Source: Ferroglobus placidus DSM 10642 (GTDB taxonomy: Archaea; Halobacteriota; Archaeoglobi; Archaeoglobales; Archaeoglobaceae). Taken from it: a stretch of DNA of 32,000 bases. The stretch is taken from assembly GCF_000025505.1 (NCBI RefSeq), contig NC_013849.1, positions 1,890,001-1,922,000 of the forward strand. The letters are read 5' to 3'. The position numbers and the translations under genes were made by a program. Positions 3,966 to 14,832 of the stretch are shown here, piece after piece. Every line of letters starts with the position of its first letter. The first letter of the stretch is position 1. The notes below the pieces were generated by a model. The model saw nothing but the letters and a program-made list of their open reading frames with translations, was not told the DNA's origin and did not search any database.

Positions 3966-5720
3966 GTGATACCCGTGTGGGATCAACTTTCTGACGTTGA
4001 AAATTGGGTGAAACAAAGATATATAGTTCTCGCTAAGGAATTCGGAAACAAGCCCTTTAGATTAGAAGACGCTGAAAAGGTTTTGAAAAAAGCGGGAATA
4101 GAAACCGGGAACGTGAAGGAATTACTTTCGATTCTGAGAAAAAAGGGTTTGCTTGAGGTTGAAAAAGACCCTGAAGATTTTAGAAGAAGCATCTACAGGT
4201 TGCTTTTTGTTGAAAAATCCGTGAGTCCTACGAGAGACAAGCTCTTCAGAAGCCTCAAAGCCGGAGCCGATCTGATAAGAGGAGGTGTTGATTACAAAGT
4301 GCTCTTGCTGTTCCTCTTCTACAAGGCTTTGAGCGATAAGTGGAATGCTCTCGTGGAAAGCTTCGTATCAGAAGGACACACAAAAACACAGGCTTATCTG
4401 CTTGCCAACAGAAAATACTATGTGCTTTACGACGAGAATGAGCAGAAGCTCCTGACTTGGCACGAAGTTACGAAGAAGAGAGAGACGCTCACAGAACTTG
4501 CGAACGCCTTAACGAGAATATCGAGATTGAATGAAAAGCTTTCAGACCTTGAGAAGCTCGTCGAGATTCTAGGATTCAAGGGATTCATAAGCGAAGATAA
4601 TCTTCACACTATCGAGAGCATAATCCAGATTTTCAACACCCTCGATTTCTCGAAGCTGCCCTATGACGTTATAGGAGATGCATATATGTGGATTCTGAAT
4701 TACTTCGCTCCACAGAAGGCGAAGGAAGGAGAAAACTACACTCCGATAGAAATAGTGAAGCTCGTTGTCAACTTGTTGGACATAGAGGTCGATGAAGAGA
4801 GTGGGGTTGTTACCGTTCTCGATCCAGCTTTAGGCTCCGGAAGTATGCTCATAGTTTCGAGAGATTACGTTAGAGAGAAGTACGGGAAGGAAGGGGAAGA
4901 TGTTCTCATGCTTTACGGTCAGGAAAGAAACGAGATAATGGGTGTTATAGCAAAAATGAACCTGATTCTTCACGACATAAAGAATTACGAGATTTTTATT
5001 GGAGACAGTTTAGCCAATCCGAGATTTCCGCAGTGCGATTACGTCGTCGCTAATCCGCCCTGGAACCAGGATTACAACGTGAACGGGCTTATAGAAGATC
5101 CAAAGGTTAAGAAAATTTACACGCAGTTCACGAGCACTTTGCCACCCAAAAACTCGATGGACTGGGGCTGGATACAGCTCATGCTTTACTTTGCAAGGAA
5201 AAAAGTTGGTATAATTCTCGACAACGGAGCTTTGTTCAGAGGAGGGAGTGAAAAGAGGATTAGAGAGGCTATTGTTAGGAGAGATTTGATCGAAGCCGTT
5301 GTTCTGCTTCCGGAGAAGCTCTTCTACAACACGGGAGCACCGGGATGCGTTATTATTTTCAACAAGAACAAGCCTGAAGAGAGGAAAGGTAAAATCCTGT
5401 TCATCAACGCAAGCAACGAGTACGAGAAGCATCCAGAAGTTAGAAGGTTGAACAGACTCGGAGAGAAAAATATCGAGAAGATCGTGGATGCTTACCGAGA
5501 ATTTAAGGATATCAAGGGTTTTGCGAGAGTTGTCAGCATTGAAGAGATTGCGAAGAACGATTACAATCTAAACGTTACGCTCTACGTAACTCCAATCGTA
5601 GAAGAAGAGGAGATCGACGTTGTCGAAGAGTGGCGAGAACTCGAGAAGATAGAAGCTGAGAGAGATGAGATAAAAGCCAAGCTCAGCGAATACGTTTCCG
5701 AAATAATGAGGGTTTGGTGA
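3966..5720 (+). CDS. hsdM: type I restriction-modification system, N6-adenine DNA methyltransferase subunit M, with N-terminal wHTH-like extension
   Basis: 584 aa. SAM-binding motif [13 protein letters not shown] and catalytic motif [11 protein letters not shown]. HsdM N-domain-like [24 protein letters not shown]. The GTG start at 3966 is uncertain (alternative GTG at 3975). Confidence 0.9.
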
Positions 5721-8258: not shown

Positions 8259-8267
8259 TTGAGGCTC

Positions 8268-8585
8268 ATGAAGGTCGAAAAGATCGTTGAGGAATTCGCT
8301 CGGGAACTGAGGAAGAAACACGAAGACAAAGTAGAGGCTATAATCTTCTTCGGTTCTCATGCGAGGAGTGAAGGAAGGGAGGAGAGCGACATCGACGTTT
8401 TAATCATTGGAGACTTAAAGCTCGACGAAGCTGTAGATGTCGCTTATCCGATTTTTCTGAAGTACGGAGTTTACATTTCCCCGATCGTGATGAATAGAGA
8501 GCACTTCGAGACGTTAAAAGCTGAAAGGACCGGATTCATCGAGAACGTTTTGAAGGAAGGGGTATTTTTGTATGGCGGAGTATGA
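8268..8585 (+). CDS. minimal nucleotidyltransferase (MNT), antitoxin-type partner of HEPN
   Basis: FFGSHARSEGREESDIDVLII is the GSxxR...DxD Pol-beta-type NTase signature. The protein is small (105 aa from the ATG at 8268; alternative TTG at 8259, immediately after the Ago stop). The 3' end overlaps the HEPN gene by 14 nt. Confidence 0.85.
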   Translation: MKVEKIVEEFARELRKKHEDKVEAIIFFGSHARSEGREESDIDVLIIGDLKLDEAVDVAYPIFLKYGVYISPIVMNREHFETLKAERTGFIENVLKEGVFLYGGV

Positions 8586-8973: not shown

Positions 8974-9298
8974 CGTGATGTTTGTTCCGATCTTTCTTTT
9001 TCAGTTCGTCTTTTGGTTGTTTCTGAACCTAACGAGAATCGGACAAGCAATCTTAGCAATTTGGGGTAGTTTGACTTTGATGGGGTTCATTGTAAACGTA
9101 TTTTATCCCGCATATCTTCAAACGATTCATCTTGGAACGTCTGGGAATTTCTTGATGGCGACCGATTTAATTGTTGAATTCGTGAAAGATTCGGTTTTGT
9201 TTTTGGTTAATTTAGTCATTCCACCTTGGTTGGGGTTGCTCGTTGGATTATTTTCGACTCATGCACAGAGAGGTGAGAAATATGATCTCGTCTGCTAA
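8966..9298 (+). CDS. small integral membrane protein (about 3 TM segments), unknown function
   Basis: It fills the otherwise 300-nt gap between HEPN and hsdS. The ATG at 8966 overlaps the HEPN stop (ATGATTGA) and is preceded by GAGGTGAGGGG. Hydrophobic stretches: VMFVPIFLFQFVFWLFLNL, GQAILAIWGSLTLMGFIVNVF and VLFLVNLVIPPWLGLLVGLF. The 3' end overlaps the hsdS start by 17 nt. Confidence 0.55.
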   Translation: MIDVMFVPIFLFQFVFWLFLNLTRIGQAILAIWGSLTLMGFIVNVFYPAYLQTIHLGTSGNFLMATDLIVEFVKDSVLFLVNLVIPPWLGLLVGLFSTHAQRGEKYDLVC

Positions 9299-10547
9299 GC
9301 TTCAATTCTACAAGGAGGAGAGGCTTGTATTTAACAAAGAACTCGGTTGCGAGATTCCTGAGGATTGGGGAGTTGTTAAGCTTGGAAAGGTTGTTGAAGT
9401 CTGGGATAAGTATAGAATTCCAGTTAAAGAGCAAGATAGAAAGCCAGGACCATATCCTTACTGCGGAGCTAATGGTATAATTGATTACGTTGATGGTTAT
9501 ACACATGACGGAGAATTTGTTCTCCTTGCCGAGGATGGAGGTTATTTTGGACCTTTTGAAAAGAGTGCATACATAATGCGAGGAAAATTCTGGGCAAATA
9601 ACCACGTGCACATTTTGAAAGCTATAGCAAATAAAATGACGAGCGAATTCTTGATGTTTTACTTAAACTTCATGGATTTAAGGCCTTTCTTGACTGGCTC
9701 CACTCGACCCAAATTGACACAAACTGATATGTTGAGAATTCCTTTACCAAAACCTTCACTTCCAGAACAAAAAGCAATCGCAGAAATCCTCTCAACAGTC
9801 GATAGAGCCATCGAAAAAACCGATGAAATCATCGCCAAAGTTGAACGCTTAAAGAAGGGCTTGATGCAGGAGCTTCTCGCTGGCAGGGTTAGAGTTAAAG
9901 TTGAGAACGGGAAGATCAGATTTTACAGAGAGACGAGATTTAAGGATAGCGAGATCGGGAAAGTGCCAGAGGATTGGGAGGTTGTTAAGCTTGGGAAAGT
10001 TGCCGAGCAAAGGAAAGAAATTGTTGACCCTACCGAAGTTGATCCCGTAACCCCATATGTTGGCCTAGAACACGTAAACTCGGGAGAAACGAAATTAAGT
10101 AACTTCGGAAAAGCAGAGGAAGTCGTTAGTTCAAAATATAGGTTTTACATTAGAGATATCCTTTACGGAAAATTAAGACCATATCTCGACAAAGCTGTAA
10201 TTTCTAATATTAACGGAGTCTGTTCTACTGATTTTATCGTCATGAGAACTAAAAGAGACTACACAATACCTGATTTCTTGATTTATGTGCTACATACAAA
10301 GAGATTCATCGATTATTCTACTGCTGGTATGACTGGAACAAATCATCCTCGAACATCTTGGAATTGGATAGCTAAGTTTGAATTTCCGCTCCCACCACTC
10401 CAAGAACAAAAAGCAATAGCAGAAATCCTTTCAACTCTCGACAAAAAACTCGAACTTGAAAAGAAAGAGAAGGAAAGACTTGAGAGAATAAAGAAGGGGC
10501 TAATGAATGTTTTGCTGACTGGAAGAGTGAGGGTGAAAGTTGGATGA
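9282..10547 (+). CDS. hsdS: type I restriction-modification system, specificity subunit S (two target-recognition domains)
   Basis: Duplicated architecture: IPEDWGVVKLGKVVEV / VPEDWEVVKLGKVAEQ at the start of each half. Duplicated conserved helices LPEQKAIAEILSTVDRAIEK...LKKGLMQELLAGRVRVKV / LQEQKAIAEILSTLDKKLEL...IKKGLMNVLLTGRVRVKV. The ATG at 9282 is preceded by GAGGTGA (the track ORF starts at a TTG at 9243). Confidence 0.9.
   Translation: MISSAKLQFYKEERLVFNKELGCEIPEDWGVVKLGKVVEVWDKYRIPVKEQDRKPGPYPYCGANGIIDYVDGYTHDGEFVLLAEDGGYFGPFEKSAYIMRGKFWANNHVHILKAIANKMTSEFLMFYLNFMDLRPFLTGSTRPKLTQTDMLRIPLPKPSLPEQKAIAEILSTVDRAIEKTDEIIAKVERLKKGLMQELLAGRVRVKVENGKIRFYRETRFKDSEIGKVPEDWEVVKLGKVAEQRKEIVDPTEVDPVTPYVGLEHVNSGETKLSNFGKAEEVVSSKYRFYIRDILYGKLRPYLDKAVISNINGVCSTDFIVMRTKRDYTIPDFLIYVLHTKRFIDYSTAGMTGTNHPRTSWNWIAKFEFPLPPLQEQKAIAEILSTLDKKLELEKKEKERLERIKKGLMNVLLTGRVRVKVG
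9762..9796 (+). repeat. hsdS internal direct repeat, copy 1 (central conserved region)
   Basis: ccagaacaaaaagcaatcgcagaaatcctctcaac matches 10401-10435 at 32 of 35 positions by hand alignment. Confidence 0.85.
10401..10435 (+). repeat. hsdS internal direct repeat, copy 2 (distal conserved region)
   Basis: caagaacaaaaagcaatagcagaaatcctttcaac; see copy 1. A second repeat pair lies at 9357-9393 and 9966-10002 (32 of 37 identical). Confidence 0.85.
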
Positions 10548-11467
10548 ATTTAGACAACATAGAACAAATTTTAGAATCTCCTGAAAAGTTAGACTCTTTA
10601 TTAAAATTACTTATGTCTTTGGAGCGAATTTTAGAATCTCAAGATGAACAGAGATATTTAGAAGCTAAAAGGTTTGTTGAGTCGGCAAATGAAGATTTAA
10701 AGGCTTCACAAATCCTTTACAATGCAGGTTTATACTCATCAGCGGTCTTTCACATGCAACAAGCTACTGAAAAATACTTTAAAGCAATAGCAATTTACTA
10801 TTTTGGACTTTCAAAGAAAAACATTAGGAAATACGTGAAACACGATACACCTAAGATTGCAATTTTATTTTTAAGAAAGTATCAAAATATAGTTAAAGAT
10901 TTAACTATGTTTTTCAAAGATATTGTCCCCGAGAAATACTTAGCAGATACTTCGAGAGAATACATCCTCAATCTTGAAAGATTGATAAATACAAATAAAC
11001 GAGACATTGCCCAATTGAATAAAGAAGAAATATATAAGCTAATTAAGTTAACTAGATCGCTTGTCGAAAGCTTAGAGAGTGATGACACTAAGAATAAAAT
11101 TCTTAATACTCTTCAGGATTTAAATAACAATAAAAGTAAGATAGTTAATAAAATTCTAGAGGTATTAAACCTCTCCCAAATTAGTGAATCTAAGCTTGAC
11201 CAAATTAAGAAACAAATCATAAAGGCACTCGATGTTTCCTTTACTGAAGCTCCTCACAATGTAGAAATTGCTCTAAAACTTGCATCTTCGATATGTATGT
11301 TATTCTTTCTGGGAATAATAACGTACCCGCATGCTACTTTTACGCGATACAGACAAAAATCAGCCCCTCAATATGATATAGGGCTTGGAATAGTGGATTC
11401 TTTCAGAGACTTACTTGAATTGCTACAGTTGGCATCTGATAATATAAATAACCTGTTTAATATATAA
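10544..11467 (+). CDS. HEPN-like domain protein with a large helical insertion, embedded between hsdS and hsdR
   Basis: 307 aa. ANEDLKASQILYNAGLYSSAVFHMQQATEKYFKAI is a textbook HEPN alpha1-alpha2 hairpin, followed by RKYVKHD (R95-x4-H100, nt 10826-10843). The C-terminal YPHATFTRYRQ...YD resembles the closing ..RY.. helix. About 140 K/N/L/I-rich residues lie in between. The ATG overlaps the hsdS TGA (ATGA). Confidence 0.6.
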   Translation: MNLDNIEQILESPEKLDSLLKLLMSLERILESQDEQRYLEAKRFVESANEDLKASQILYNAGLYSSAVFHMQQATEKYFKAIAIYYFGLSKKNIRKYVKHDTPKIAILFLRKYQNIVKDLTMFFKDIVPEKYLADTSREYILNLERLINTNKRDIAQLNKEEIYKLIKLTRSLVESLESDDTKNKILNTLQDLNNNKSKIVNKILEVLNLSQISESKLDQIKKQIIKALDVSFTEAPHNVEIALKLASSICMLFFLGIITYPHATFTRYRQKSAPQYDIGLGIVDSFRDLLELLQLASDNINNLFNI

Positions 11468-11487
11468 GATCGTAGAGGTGTAGCATT

Positions 11488-14400
11488 ATGCCCCTCCAAT
11501 CGGAGGATGTCGTTCACGAAGAAATCAAGAGAAATCTCATCGAAATCGGCTGGAAAGATGGAAATACCGAGCTGAAAATACCTGAACACGCGCTGATCGA
11601 AAGTTATTACCTGCCAGACGTTCTTGAAAAGAAAATCCTCGAAATTAACGAGGAGGAGTTTTCGAGGGTTGAAGAAGACGAGGAAAGAGAGGTGTTTGCA
11701 AAAATCTTTGAAGAGCTGAACGCGAGGGAAGAAAGAATTCTCGACTATCTTAAATACGGGGTCAAAGTTAAAGTTGGAAAAGAAATCAAAATTTTTCGCC
11801 TGATAGATCACGAGAAGCCTAAGAGGAATTACTTTTTCTTCCTTCACGAAGCCAAGTTTAAAGGCTCTCCAGACAACAGCAAGCCAGATTTCACGCTCTT
11901 CATAAACGGAATACCCGTGGTTATAATCGAGGCTAAGTCGGAGTCAATTCCTTACTCACACAAAACAGCTTTGGAAGACATAAGAAGCTACGAAATGCGA
12001 TCTCCCGATCTCTTCCGATTCGTTCAGTTTGCAATCGCTTACGGAGATGAGAAACGCTACACTCCAACGCTCCCAAACTGGGAGAGAAAACAAACTCAAA
12101 GCTTCTCGTTTAACTGGAAAGACGATATTTTCGATCTCCTGAATCCGGAAAGGCTCGTGGAATTCATTCGATACTTCGTTTTCTTCTGGAGTCCCGAAGA
12201 AGGTGTCAAAAAGAAGCTCGTTGCGAGATACAATCAGTACAGAGCGACGAAAAAAGCTATGAGAAGAATCGAAGAGCACATGAACGATGAAAAGAACCGC
12301 GGACTGATATGGCACTGGCAGGGGAGTGGCAAAACCTTCACGATGTTCTTCATAGCCAACTACTTTCTCGACAAATACTATTCGCAAAATCCCGTTGTGT
12401 TCTTTGTAGTTGACAGGCAAGACTTAGAGAGGCAGCACGACGAAGTTCTAAAGTCCGTTCACGAAGAAAAATTCAGGAGTCTTTACAAGAAAATTGAAAG
12501 CATCCCCGAGCTTTGCAAAATAATCGAAACTCTGAAGGAGAGCGAGTTCTCGAAAAACATAATTCCTCGCGGTGTATACTTAACCACGATTCAGAAATTC
12601 CAGAGAGGTCAAACGGACGTCGAAGGCTTGAGCGAGAAAGAAGATCGGGAAGCTTCGCAGAGAATATACTCGCTATTGCTCAAGCTCGCAGAAAGGTATC
12701 TGAAGCACCTTGAAAAAACTAATCCGGAGGAATACAGAAAAGTTATGAACAAACTCTCTTCTCTTAAAGGAAAGGATAGGGTGAAATACCTCCTCGAACT
12801 TGGTGGCGTAAAAAGTAAATCTGTGCTCTTCCTGATAGACGAAGCTCACAGAAGTCATTACAGCACTCTCGGAGCGATGAGGAAAGCAAGCTTTCCGAAC
12901 TGCGTGACTTTAGGCTTTACAGGAACGCCTATTTTCAAATACGAGAGAAACACCTTCGTCGAGTTTTCTTATCCAGACGAGAAGGAGTATTACCTTGACG
13001 TTTACTTCATCGAAGAGTCAATAAAGGACGGATTCACTCTTCCGCTCGCCTACGAGGTTGTTAAAGAAGGTGACGTGAAAGCTGAAGGAATTCAGATAAG
13101 GTTAACCGAGAAGGAGATAGCGGACTTCATAAAAGAATACATGAAAAAGCGCGGAAAGATAGAGGAGCTCCTTGAGGCGAAAATAACCAAGAAGGAAATT
13201 CGCGATAACATAACGAAGGCTAAGGTCATCTTGCTCAATCCTGAAAGGATAGACAAACTCGCCAAGTACATCGTTGATAGAATCGAAGAAGACACGGAGA
13301 ATTTCAAGTTCAAAGCGATGGTCGTAGCCGTTAACAGGCTCGGATGCGTGAGATACAAGAGAGCTCTGGACAAATATCTCGTGGAAAAATTTGGAGAGGA
13401 GGCAAGAAGCTGGAGCGAAATAGTGATGACCTACAACTACAAAGAGACTGAAAGGGAAATCCTCGAATACATGGAAGAGCTCAGAGAAAGAAGAGGAAAC
13501 AAGGACTACAACGAAATAAACAAAGAAATACAGGACGAGTTCAAAAACAAAGAAGATCCGAGAATTTTAATAGTTACGGACATGCTACTAACAGGTTTCG
13601 ATGCTCCCAGACTTAGAGTCATGTATCTGGACAAACCGCTTTACGAACACAGACTTCTACAGGCTATAGCCAGGGTTAACAGACCTTACGAGGACAAGGA
13701 ATACGGGTTGATCGTTGATTCTGTAGGACTCATGGAACACCTCACCAAAACCATGGCAATTTACAACCTCCTAGCTGATGAAAATAGCGAGATCAAGCGA
13801 GATCTTGAGCTTAATCTAATGAAGTCGATAGAGCAGAAGTTCTCCGAATTCGAATTGAAGTTTAACAGTTTGAAAGAAGAGCTGAAAACGCTTAAAGTGG
13901 CTGGCGAAGATGTCGGAATTGACATCGATGCCGTAAAGAAAGCTTTGAAAACCGGTGAAGGCAAGGAAGAAGTACTGAGCAAGATAAAAATGTTTGCGAT
14001 GCTTTATACGGAAAGCGAAGAGTTCTCAACCAAGCTCGTTAGGATTGTAAACGAAATGAGAGGAATTTTGAGGTTATACAAAGCTCTGGGAGCTTACACT
14101 CAAAAAATAGTTTACGTTGAAGATGTTCAAGCTCTTGCGTACATCTACTACAGACTCAGATCTATAATATCCCCGAAGACCGCAAGACTCGGAAAAGAAT
14201 TCTGGGATGAGCTGAGATCGTACATTTACGAAAGAACTGTGGTTGAGGAGTTTAGGGAAGTAGGAAGGACAAAACTCGAACCAGAAAAAATAGATAAACT
14301 GGTTTCGGAGTTTGCCGAAAAATTTGGTGAAGACGAGCTAAGGAGGAAAATCGTCAATCAGCTTGCCGATTATTTCTTCTACATCAGAAACTTTGTAAAA

Positions 14401-14526
14401 GACAAAGTTCACGATCCCGTCTACAGACAAATAGCTGAAAAAATCGAAAGGTTGAGGATAGAATGGATATTAAGAGCTGTTAATACAAAGACGTTTCTCG
14501 CTAAACTCAAGGCAATCGAAGACTAA
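11488..14526 (+). CDS. hsdR: type I restriction enzyme, R subunit (nuclease + SF2 helicase), ends at an in-frame TAA
   Basis: 1012 aa. PD-(D/E)xK-like KPDFTLFINGIPVVIIEAKSE. Helicase motif I WHWQGSGKTF, motif II FLIDEAHRSHY, motif III GFTGTPI and motif VI QAIARVNRPY. A GAGGTG SD lies in the 20-nt gap after the preceding gene. Confidence 0.9.
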   Translation: MPLQSEDVVHEEIKRNLIEIGWKDGNTELKIPEHALIESYYLPDVLEKKILEINEEEFSRVEEDEEREVFAKIFEELNAREERILDYLKYGVKVKVGKEIKIFRLIDHEKPKRNYFFFLHEAKFKGSPDNSKPDFTLFINGIPVVIIEAKSESIPYSHKTALEDIRSYEMRSPDLFRFVQFAIAYGDEKRYTPTLPNWERKQTQSFSFNWKDDIFDLLNPERLVEFIRYFVFFWSPEEGVKKKLVARYNQYRATKKAMRRIEEHMNDEKNRGLIWHWQGSGKTFTMFFIANYFLDKYYSQNPVVFFVVDRQDLERQHDEVLKSVHEEKFRSLYKKIESIPELCKIIETLKESEFSKNIIPRGVYLTTIQKFQRGQTDVEGLSEKEDREASQRIYSLLLKLAERYLKHLEKTNPEEYRKVMNKLSSLKGKDRVKYLLELGGVKSKSVLFLIDEAHRSHYSTLGAMRKASFPNCVTLGFTGTPIFKYERNTFVEFSYPDEKEYYLDVYFIEESIKDGFTLPLAYEVVKEGDVKAEGIQIRLTEKEIADFIKEYMKKRGKIEELLEAKITKKEIRDNITKAKVILLNPERIDKLAKYIVDRIEEDTENFKFKAMVVAVNRLGCVRYKRALDKYLVEKFGEEARSWSEIVMTYNYKETEREILEYMEELRERRGNKDYNEINKEIQDEFKNKEDPRILIVTDMLLTGFDAPRLRVMYLDKPLYEHRLLQAIARVNRPYEDKEYGLIVDSVGLMEHLTKTMAIYNLLADENSEIKRDLELNLMKSIEQKFSEFELKFNSLKEELKTLKVAGEDVGIDIDAVKKALKTGEGKEEVLSKIKMFAMLYTESEEFSTKLVRIVNEMRGILRLYKALGAYTQKIVYVEDVQALAYIYYRLRSIISPKTARLGKEFWDELRSYIYERTVVEEFREVGRTKLEPEKIDKLVSEFAEKFGEDELRRKIVNQLADYFFYIRNFVKDKVHDPVYRQIAEKIERLRIEWILRAVNTKTFLAKLKAIED

Positions 14527-14586: not shown

Positions 14587-14832
14587 ATGAGTTACTACGT
14601 GAAACAAAAAGCTGGTAAGGAAGCTGACTTTTCGAATACAAAGAAATATCTCAAAAACCTCGTTTCGAGGAAAACGAAAATACTTCCGAAACAGGAGAGC
14701 GAACTCAAAACCAGAATTCTGGAAGATTTGTTCCTGGCGGGGGTGGAGGAAAAGGAAGCTGTAAAGCTAACAGACGAACTCGCGGAGTACATCAAAGAGG
14801 AGATGGATAGATTATGGAGCGAAAGGAGGTAA
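14587..14832 (+). CDS. 81-aa ORF in the same frame as hsdR; probable detached C-terminal tail of HsdR
   Basis: Frame 1, the same as hsdR. Only the TAA at 14524-14526 separates them, and codons 14527-14586 contain no further stop. The string QESELKTRILEDLFLAGVEEKEAVKLTDELAEYI resembles the extreme C-terminus of full-length HsdR proteins as I recall it. Confidence 0.4.
   Translation: MSYYVKQKAGKEADFSNTKKYLKNLVSRKTKILPKQESELKTRILEDLFLAGVEEKEAVKLTDELAEYIKEEMDRLWSERR

Follow-up and report, generated by a model that had tools for sequence, protein, structure and literature searches.

In the genome of Ferroglobus placidus DSM 10642, an open reading frame (ORF) of 307 codons, called ORF307 here, encodes a protein that, judged from sequence profiles and a structural model, has an intact four-helix HEPN core split between helices 2 and 3 by an all-helical domain of approximately 125 residues. 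The ORF list and the sequence place it at 10544..11467 (+) in the stretch of DNA that we analysed (32,000 nucleotides, positions 1,890,001 to 1,922,000 of contig NC_013849.1; called the window here). The gene belongs integrally to a type I restriction-modification (R-M) operon with the order hsdM...hsdS-ORF307-hsdR, in which it is packed tightly against its neighbours. By sequence comparison, the protein falls in the PF05168 (‘HEPN-T’)/AbiV-like branch of the HEPN superfamily, within a subfamily that has no name and is mostly archaeal. We predict that it serves as a back-up, RNA-cutting defence protein, and we give the joint claim (subfamily membership, place in the R-M operon and predicted role) a probability of about 0.5. 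What is new is a coherent subfamily of approximately 400 clusters that lacks a dedicated model, carries an insertion the size of a domain and recurs in the placement hsdS-X-hsdR. An earlier note on this DNA, made from the sequence alone, had read the gene as an insertion-bearing HEPN RNase in a PrrC-like position.

The Pfam HEPN model PF05168 matches ORF307 with an E value of 3.4e-10 and 40.5 bits (cut-off 22), in keeping with the N-terminal HEPN helix pair that the earlier note had seen, and it matches 50 of 50 family relatives as well. All of the score comes from core helices 1 and 2 (profile positions 2–52). AlphaFold2 (AF2), supplied with an alignment of 50 sequences, yielded an all-helical model with a predicted local distance difference test score (pLDDT) of 90.4 and a predicted template modelling score (pTM) of 0.88. 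The four core helices of this model, at the positions given in Table 1, and a 110-column profile match (see below) together make up a complete four-helix core. A short helix (residues 91–98) follows core helix 2. The N-terminal extension is less well defined (pLDDT 69–79) and poorly conserved, with a mean column conservation of 0.19.

The insertion contains eight helices of 4–18 residues each between residues 103 and 229 of the model, and it is predicted to form a bundle of short helices with no long coiled coil. Its length is kept across 50 family representatives (117 ± 9 amino acids (aa)), but its sequence is not (conservation 0.26). Taken by itself, the insertion gave no Pfam hit, and AF2 of the insertion alone from the single sequence reached a pLDDT of 48.7, which is too low to use. 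The junction between helices 2 and 3 is a known site of inserts in HEPN domains (PMC3710099), and the insertion of ORF307 is unusually large for this site. The HEPN domain is thus split by an insertion at residues ~110–235, as had been proposed earlier, although the insertion is modelled as short helices instead of a coiled coil.

By three independent comparisons, the C-terminal part of ORF307 reads as the second half of the HEPN core. When the family alignment with the insertion deleted was compared with 38 short HEPNs by hhalign, the match had a probability of 99.5% and an E value of 1.9e-22 over 110 columns; H100 fell on an invariant histidine and R268-Y269 on an invariant R-Y. The insertion-deleted family profile is also colinear with the HEPNs 1o3u and 1wol of the PDB, with ‘tRYPd’ on TRYPD/SRYPD and H100 on H60 of 1wol. 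Ordinary HEPN ORFs of ~130 aa from the fetched loci aligned to the family hidden Markov model (HMM) in one stretch, from ~38 to ~263, jumping the insertion. With the insertion kept, hhalign against the short HEPNs recovered helices 1 and 2 only (98.8%). An hhalign comparison with the single sequence of the neighbouring 133-aa HEPN recovered helix 1 only, which is uninformative. The segment ITYPHATFTRY.., which had earlier been taken as HEPN-like, matches the final part of HEPN helix 3 together with the ‘RYP’ loop. Both the profile comparison and the AF2 model thus bear out the HEPN fold. A Foldseek search with the full model against the PDB and BFVD returned no significant match, the small HEPN core being outweighed by the insertion; the only match of high probability was the HEPN 1wol (probability 0.80, rank 50). 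We rejected a model with a contiguous HEPN (Pfam span 42–176) followed by a separate C-terminal domain. The Pfam span is misleading, since deletion of residues 105–230 keeps the score (41.3 vs. 40.5 bits). The Pfam match in the relatives ends at profile position ~50, and the C-terminal motifs align to HEPN helix 3 and its loop, which also speaks against a contiguous domain.

Conservation in the family is concentrated at both ends of the protein. Residues D51, L58, Q73, E76, K77, K80, and H100 are invariant, and Q72, P262, H263, R268, Y269, and Y277 are found in at least 90% of members (H263 and Y277 in 96%, R268 and Y269 in 98%). ORF307 retains all the invariant and near-invariant residues D51, Q72, Q73, E76, K77, K80, H100, H263, R268, and Y269. 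The stretch RKYVKHD with R95-x4-H100, singled out by the earlier note, is present, and its histidine occurs in 50 of 50 family representatives. Position 95 is looser, with lysine in 20 (40%), arginine in 18 (36%) and other residues in 12 (24%), that is, R/K in 76%, and the pair lies between core helices 2 and 3 instead of forming the canonical Rx4–6H. The canonical position of the catalytic arginine, at the end of core helix 3, is occupied by R268, in a loop with the family consensus TRYPD..P.DY. Many PF05168-type HEPNs have no histidine after this arginine and carry an alternative conserved histidine that comes from the helix 2–3 insert (PMC3710099). On the basis of the alignments, H100 is the alternative histidine of this variant in the ORF307 family. 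In AbiV, a metal-independent RNase, R91-x5-H97 lies in the helix 2–3 segment and was validated by mutation, R91A abolishing rRNA cleavage (bioRxiv 10.1101/2024.05.05.592566). Because the AbiV motif sits in the same segment, R95-x4-H100 is a reasonable AbiV-like candidate. By analogy, H100 and R268 are the likely site, to which H263 and the basic residue at position 95 may contribute.

A HMMER search of 1.8 billion cluster representatives (50%-identity clusters) found 399 representatives with E≤1e-3, 84 of them with E≤1e-10. Most members measure 250–320 aa and match over nearly their full length. In the databases, the relatives are named just ‘HEPN domain-containing protein’ or ‘hypothetical protein’; these names came from a homologue search with the core alignment, and a single sequence with the insertion deleted matched nothing. 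There was no match to ORF307 in PADLOC and no meaningful one in NCBIfam or PHROG. The earlier statement that the architecture is not a described family therefore holds as far as curated models and names go, but the clustering of PF05168 HEPNs with R-M genes was already noted in 2013 (PMC3710099). A scan of genome contigs with ORF307 alone found no relative, whereas a scan seeded with the alignment, taking one genome per species, gave 80 loci, 41 of which have a full-length family member. The members are mostly archaeal (Methanoperedens, Geoglobus, Thermococcus, Nitrososphaeria, Thermoplasmatota, DPANN lineages, and one Asgard genome), with a few from bacteria (Dehalococcoidia, Caldisericaceae, and Bacteroidota). 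The family tree is star-like, and the R-M-linked members are scattered over it.

The junctions of ORF307 with its neighbours are tight. Its ATG (10544–10546) overlaps the TGA of hsdS (10545–10547) in a shared ATGA, an overlap of 4 nt that the earlier note had read correctly, and the ATG of hsdR begins 20 nt past the end of ORF307. An identical copy of the gene and the operon is found in independent public assemblies. ORF307 is not just among the most AT-rich genes, as noted earlier: no other gene of the window is richer in AT. It has a GC content of 0.308 and a GC content at third codon positions (GC3) of 0.279, compared with 0.428 for the GC content of the window and a GC3 of ~0.51 for hsdM and hsdR. 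The lowest-GC 1-kb stretch of all 32 kb is 10501–11500, which spans ORF307. The GC3 of hsdS (9243–10547) is 0.377, also lower than that of hsdM and hsdR, and this gene may have been exchanged with ORF307 as a cassette.

The context of the relatives was read from 41 representative genomes and 9 metagenomic look-ups, in which several contigs are too short for both flanks and gene starts are those of the longest ORFs. Iterated profile searches with the Hsd proteins of the window showed that 13 of the 41 loci have hsd genes on the same strand, with hsdS at −1 in eight and hsdR at +1 in nine. The usual order in these type I loci is hsdS-gene-hsdR, and the junctions mostly overlap or measure less than 12 nt. 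Thus, the slot between hsdS and hsdR, which the earlier note had likened to that of PrrC, recurs in unrelated archaea and in some bacteria. The closest homologue (P0002, 42% identity) starts at the last base of hsdS, and another member lies directly upstream of hsdM-hsdS-hsdR. All-against-all BLAST of four neighbours per side showed that no neighbour families other than hsdS, hsdR and hsdM come up repeatedly in unrelated loci. The non-hsd members are solitary, in heterogeneous surroundings that are defence-like in several cases; some have helicase or integrase genes nearby, or restriction genes of the Mrr, type III, or type ISP kind. In four of the ten non-hsd loci examined, a small EndoVII, HNH, or bifunctional-nuclease (BFN) gene lies immediately upstream on the same strand, which suggests that small DNase genes are a second recurrent pairing.

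Table 1. Features of the hsd operon of the window, segments of ORF307, and small nuclease genes upstream of relatives (for the latter, positions are preceded by the locus).
Feature	Position	Strand	Basis or remark
hsdM	3966..5720	+	Pfam N6_Mtase E=9e-99; first gene of the same-strand cluster
AF2212-like small ORF, 63 aa	5714..5905	+	precedes the Argonaute gene
Argonaute (pAgo), 782 aa	5910..8258	+	Pfam Piwi 1e-20; PADLOC pAgo 2e-144
minimal nucleotidyltransferase (MNT)	8259..8585	+	overlaps the following HEPN gene
canonical HEPN, 133 aa	8572..8973	+	PF05168 E=1e-19
hydrophobic ORF, 113 aa	8957..9298	+	between the 133-aa HEPN gene and hsdS
hsdS, two target-recognition domains	9282..10547	+	Pfam Methylase_S, two stretches, E=7.7e-51; longest ORF from 9243; public-assembly gene call in the same DNA, 421 aa
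ORF307, insertion-bearing HEPN-T/AbiV-like	10544..11467	+	Pfam HEPN, family search, AF2
N-terminal extension, residues 1–34, two helices	10544..10645	+	AF2 helices 3–11, 13–31
HEPN core helices 1 and 2, residues 35–87	10646..10804	+	PF05168, 1o3u/1wol match, AF2 (35–60, 64–87)
R95-K-Y-V-K-H100, between core helices 2 and 3	10826..10843	+	family alignment
helical insertion domain, residues ~103–232	10850..11239	+	AF2
HEPN core helix 3, residues 233–260	11240..11323	+	AF2, hhalign of insertion-deleted core
loop 261–286 with P262-H263-x4-R268-Y269...Y277...L-G-I-V (‘RYP’ signature)	11324..11401	+	family alignment, AF2
HEPN core helix 4, residues 287–306	11402..11461	+	AF2, pLDDT 94–98
hsdR	11488..14526	+	Pfam HSDR_N, SWI2_SNF2, ResIII, T1R_D3-like
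81-aa ORF, no family match	14587..14832	+	overlaps the YgjP-like ORF
short YgjP-like ORF, 97 aa	14814..15107	+	Pfam profile positions 114–200 of 207
small EndoVII/HNH/bifunctional-nuclease-domain genes	L016 7377–7757; L029 7323–7658; L040 7289–7615; L047 7553–7975	+	directly upstream of the family member

Among known proteins, the ORF307 family stands close to the HEPN-T family (PF05168; structures 1o3u, 1wol, and 2hsb/AF0298), which includes the short HEPN partners of MNTs. It shares with them D...YHLQQAxEKxxKA in helices 1 and 2, the invariant histidine after helix 2 and the R-Y-P loop after helix 3. Unlike them, it begins with an N-terminal extension of ~35 residues and carries an insertion of ~125 residues after the histidine segment and before helix 3, so that the members measure ~250–320 aa instead of ~130. 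They also differ from the MNT-HEPN pairs in that no MNT is adjacent in 39–40 of the 41 loci. An MNT is near the family member only in L001, and L052 has one ~7 kb away; in the window, the MNT pairs with its own 133-aa HEPN. In L001 (Methanoperedens), a similar MNT-HEPN pair lies just upstream of the family member. The genes of PF05168 HEPN-T proteins are known to cluster with R-M operons, and a two-layer defence hypothesis was published in 2013 (PMC3710099).

AbiV, an abortive-infection protein of Lactococcus (PF18728), resembles ORF307 in its HEPN core and in the additional helices that separate core helix 2 from core helix 3. The basic-x(4–5)-His motif in that segment (R91..H97 in AbiV) would have its counterpart in R95..H100 of ORF307. 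PF18728 scores ORF307 at 22.2 bits, under the cut-off of 27.1, and weak AbiV matches are also seen in 11 of 50 relatives. Neither the NCBIfam AbiV model TIGR04498 nor PADLOC gave a hit. By these curated thresholds, ORF307 falls outside the AbiV family, yet it is closest to AbiV in design. The differences are a much larger insertion, a gene embedded in a type I R-M operon, and a mostly archaeal family. No upstream RNA antitoxin of the AbiV type was found by Rfam hits or as tandem repeats; an unrecognised RNA might lie within coding sequence.

PrrC and RloC belong to the same HEPN superfamily, and PrrC shares the slot between hsdS and hsdR. Its model and its hsd-linked position have been described (PMC3710099), and a second-line, RNA-targeting logic of the same kind is plausible for ORF307 by analogy. 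ORF307 has no ABC-ATPase domain in its 307 aa by Pfam and NCBIfam, it falls in a different HEPN clade, and it has no canonical Rx4–6H. In the absence of the ATPase, it is not a PrrC or RloC, and the common point is only the genomic slot of PrrC. PrrC itself is kept inactive by the Hsd complex; freed by an anti-restriction factor, it cuts the anticodon loop of a tRNA. Among the 16 HEPN clades listed as linked to R-M (ApeA, AbiU2, AbiJ, and Ymh among them; PMC3710099), other R-M-embedded HEPNs are likewise found beside or fused to DNA-targeting parts (HsdR, HNH/EndoVII, or restriction endonuclease). However, none of the Pfam models of these clades matches ORF307, which is matched only by PF05168 and weakly by AbiV, and the insertion architecture is specific to the ORF307 subfamily.

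The mechanism that we propose is drawn by analogy from AbiV, PrrC, and further HEPN toxins. ORF307 would dimerise through its HEPN core, and a metal-independent RNA-cleaving site may be formed by R268 and H100, perhaps together with H263 or the basic residue at position 95. The enzyme would cut RNA (rRNA, tRNA, or mRNA) as a second layer of defence once DNA restriction fails or is overwhelmed. Until then, it could be silenced by the Hsd complex, as PrrC is, or by its own insertion domain; given the translationally coupled position of the gene, PrrC-like control by Hsd is attractive. Several points weigh against this reading. No histidine follows R268 at a distance of 4–6 residues (TRYRQKSAPQY), so the canonical Rx4–6H is absent, and TRYRQ departs from the family consensus TRYPD. 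That H100 and R268 lie close together in space is a presumption. The RNase activity of the subfamily is predicted by analogy, and some PF05168-type HEPNs (sacsin and the C-terminal domains of nucleotidyltransferases) bind nucleotides and do not cut RNA. No antitoxin candidate emerged for ORF307 as a Rfam hit, a tandem repeat, or a conserved small neighbour. R-M genes are absent from the immediate neighbourhood of approximately two-thirds of the relatives whose context is known, so that strict dependence on Hsd is unlikely for the family as a whole.

A rival reading is an autonomous selfish toxin or abortive-infection gene that has merely lodged in R-M operons and other defence islands, with its own control (by the insertion or an unrecognised RNA as in AbiV) and no functional dependence on Hsd. 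Two-thirds of the family are solitary in mixed surroundings, some members adjoin integrases, ORF307 is compositionally foreign next to hsdM and hsdR, and AbiV offers the precedent of a self-contained type III toxin-antitoxin pair. However, the arrangement hsdS-gene-hsdR, overlapping junctions included, is seen again in distant lineages and across the family tree, beyond what loose co-location in islands would give, and no RNA element or repeat is seen near ORF307. Because of the 4-nt overlap upstream and the 20-nt gap downstream, there is also no intergenic room for a promoter or an antitoxin. We regard an autonomous toxin as unlikely, if still deserving attention. The converse proposal, made in the earlier note, ties ORF307 closely to its neighbours: the insertion would dock the protein on the coiled-coil scaffold of HsdS/HsdM, and the RNase would fire when anti-restriction factors inactivate the complex, making it a PrrC-type guard without an ATPase. 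The slot is identical to that of prrC, the ATGA suggests translational coupling to hsdS, and the junctions in the relatives are similarly tight. Docking is nevertheless unsupported, because the insertion keeps its length in 50 representatives drawn regardless of context, and most relatives with known context have no hsd neighbours. It is also predicted to consist of short helices with no long coiled coil, and profile comparison found no similarity of the family to HsdS or HsdR. We consider such a guard doubtful.

A non-catalytic HEPN that binds a nucleotide or another ligand and modulates the R-M enzyme as a regulatory or accessory subunit would account for the missing Rx4–6H and for the lack of an antitoxin candidate, which would fit a harmless protein; some PF05168 relatives are indeed binding domains. 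Against it, the conserved residues D51, Q72/Q73, E76, K77, K80, H100, H263, R268, and Y269 are common to the HEPN-T toxins paired with MNTs, and the closest relative to have been characterised, AbiV, cuts RNA with residues of the same segment. Members also exist with no R-M partner to regulate. This makes a purely regulatory role improbable. A partnership with the Argonaute of the operon, in which ORF307 would make guide RNAs in the manner of Agap-HEPN, seems very remote, and we rejected it since none of the 80 related loci has a pAgo homologue. In its favour, the two genes are both AT-rich insertions in one operon, with similarly low GC contents (0.346 for pAgo and 0.308 for ORF307), and a HEPN RNase that feeds a pAgo has a precedent. 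However, the gene of Agap-HEPN directly precedes and overlaps its pAgo (PMC11162769), whereas 2.3 kb and four genes separate the two here. The MNT was rejected as an antitoxin partner as it is not conserved beside the family member in the 41 loci, and all-against-all BLAST of the neighbours gave no conserved small neighbour that could be a protein antitoxin. A back-up RNase within the R-M operon thus remains our preferred reading of ORF307.

One extension of that reading goes further. The subfamily might be an ATPase-less analogue of PrrC, whose insertion acts as a sensor or latch for a partner DNA nuclease (HsdR/HsdS, or HNH/EndoVII elsewhere) and unleashes the H100/R268 RNase when restriction is blocked. 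We hold this to be rather unlikely as it stands. In such a scheme, the substrate might be tRNA, as hinted by a single in-frame fusion to an alanyl-tRNA synthetase (AlaRS). The fusion is found in a metagenome-assembled genome of Cytophagales (L036, 5400–8747 (+)), where a complete AlaRS (tRNA-synt_2c, tRNA_SAD, DHHA1) is in frame with a full family member. The HEPN starts at residue ~874, the insertion and an SRY loop are present, and there is no intervening stop. This one case is either a genuine AlaRS-HEPN fusion or the product of a stop codon lost in assembly. In the metagenomic protein P0023 (770 aa), a family member is fused to the C-terminus of a DUF2779/RNase H-like domain protein, which is another association with a nuclease.

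The hsd operon of the window has other unusual members. The pAgo gene lies inside the operon, between hsdM and hsdS. With a GC content (0.346) and a GC3 (0.337) well under those of the hsd genes on either side, it has the look of a separate insertion. The MNT and the 133-aa HEPN make up an overlapping toxin-antitoxin-like pair, and the operon thus holds two HEPN genes from one Pfam family. The hydrophobic ORF that follows has no family match, is called with 110 aa in a public assembly, and may be a small membrane protein. Downstream of hsdR, the match of the YgjP-like ORF to its Pfam profile is confined to the C-terminal half of the profile. A metallopeptidase-like gene commonly comes after hsdR, and this ORF and the 81-aa ORF may together be a copy of it that has been split or frameshifted.

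The HEPN genes embedded in R-M operons have been predicted to be second-line, RNA-targeting defences since 2013 (PMC3710099). The present subfamily is compact (~300 aa) and well modelled, with few invariant residues to mutate (H100, R268, and H263). Since it is found both in type I operons and alone, it offers a convenient way to learn whether an RNase is under the control of the restriction complex encoded next to it. To our knowledge, almost none of the R-M-embedded HEPNs apart from PrrC have been tested, and none in archaea. ORF307 also shows how far the variable helix 2–3 region can grow into a separate domain, a split that Pfam-type annotation misses by scoring just the first half of the HEPN domain. 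If the subfamily does prove to be an analogue of PrrC, it would represent a widespread archaeal ‘guard’ module for restriction enzymes.

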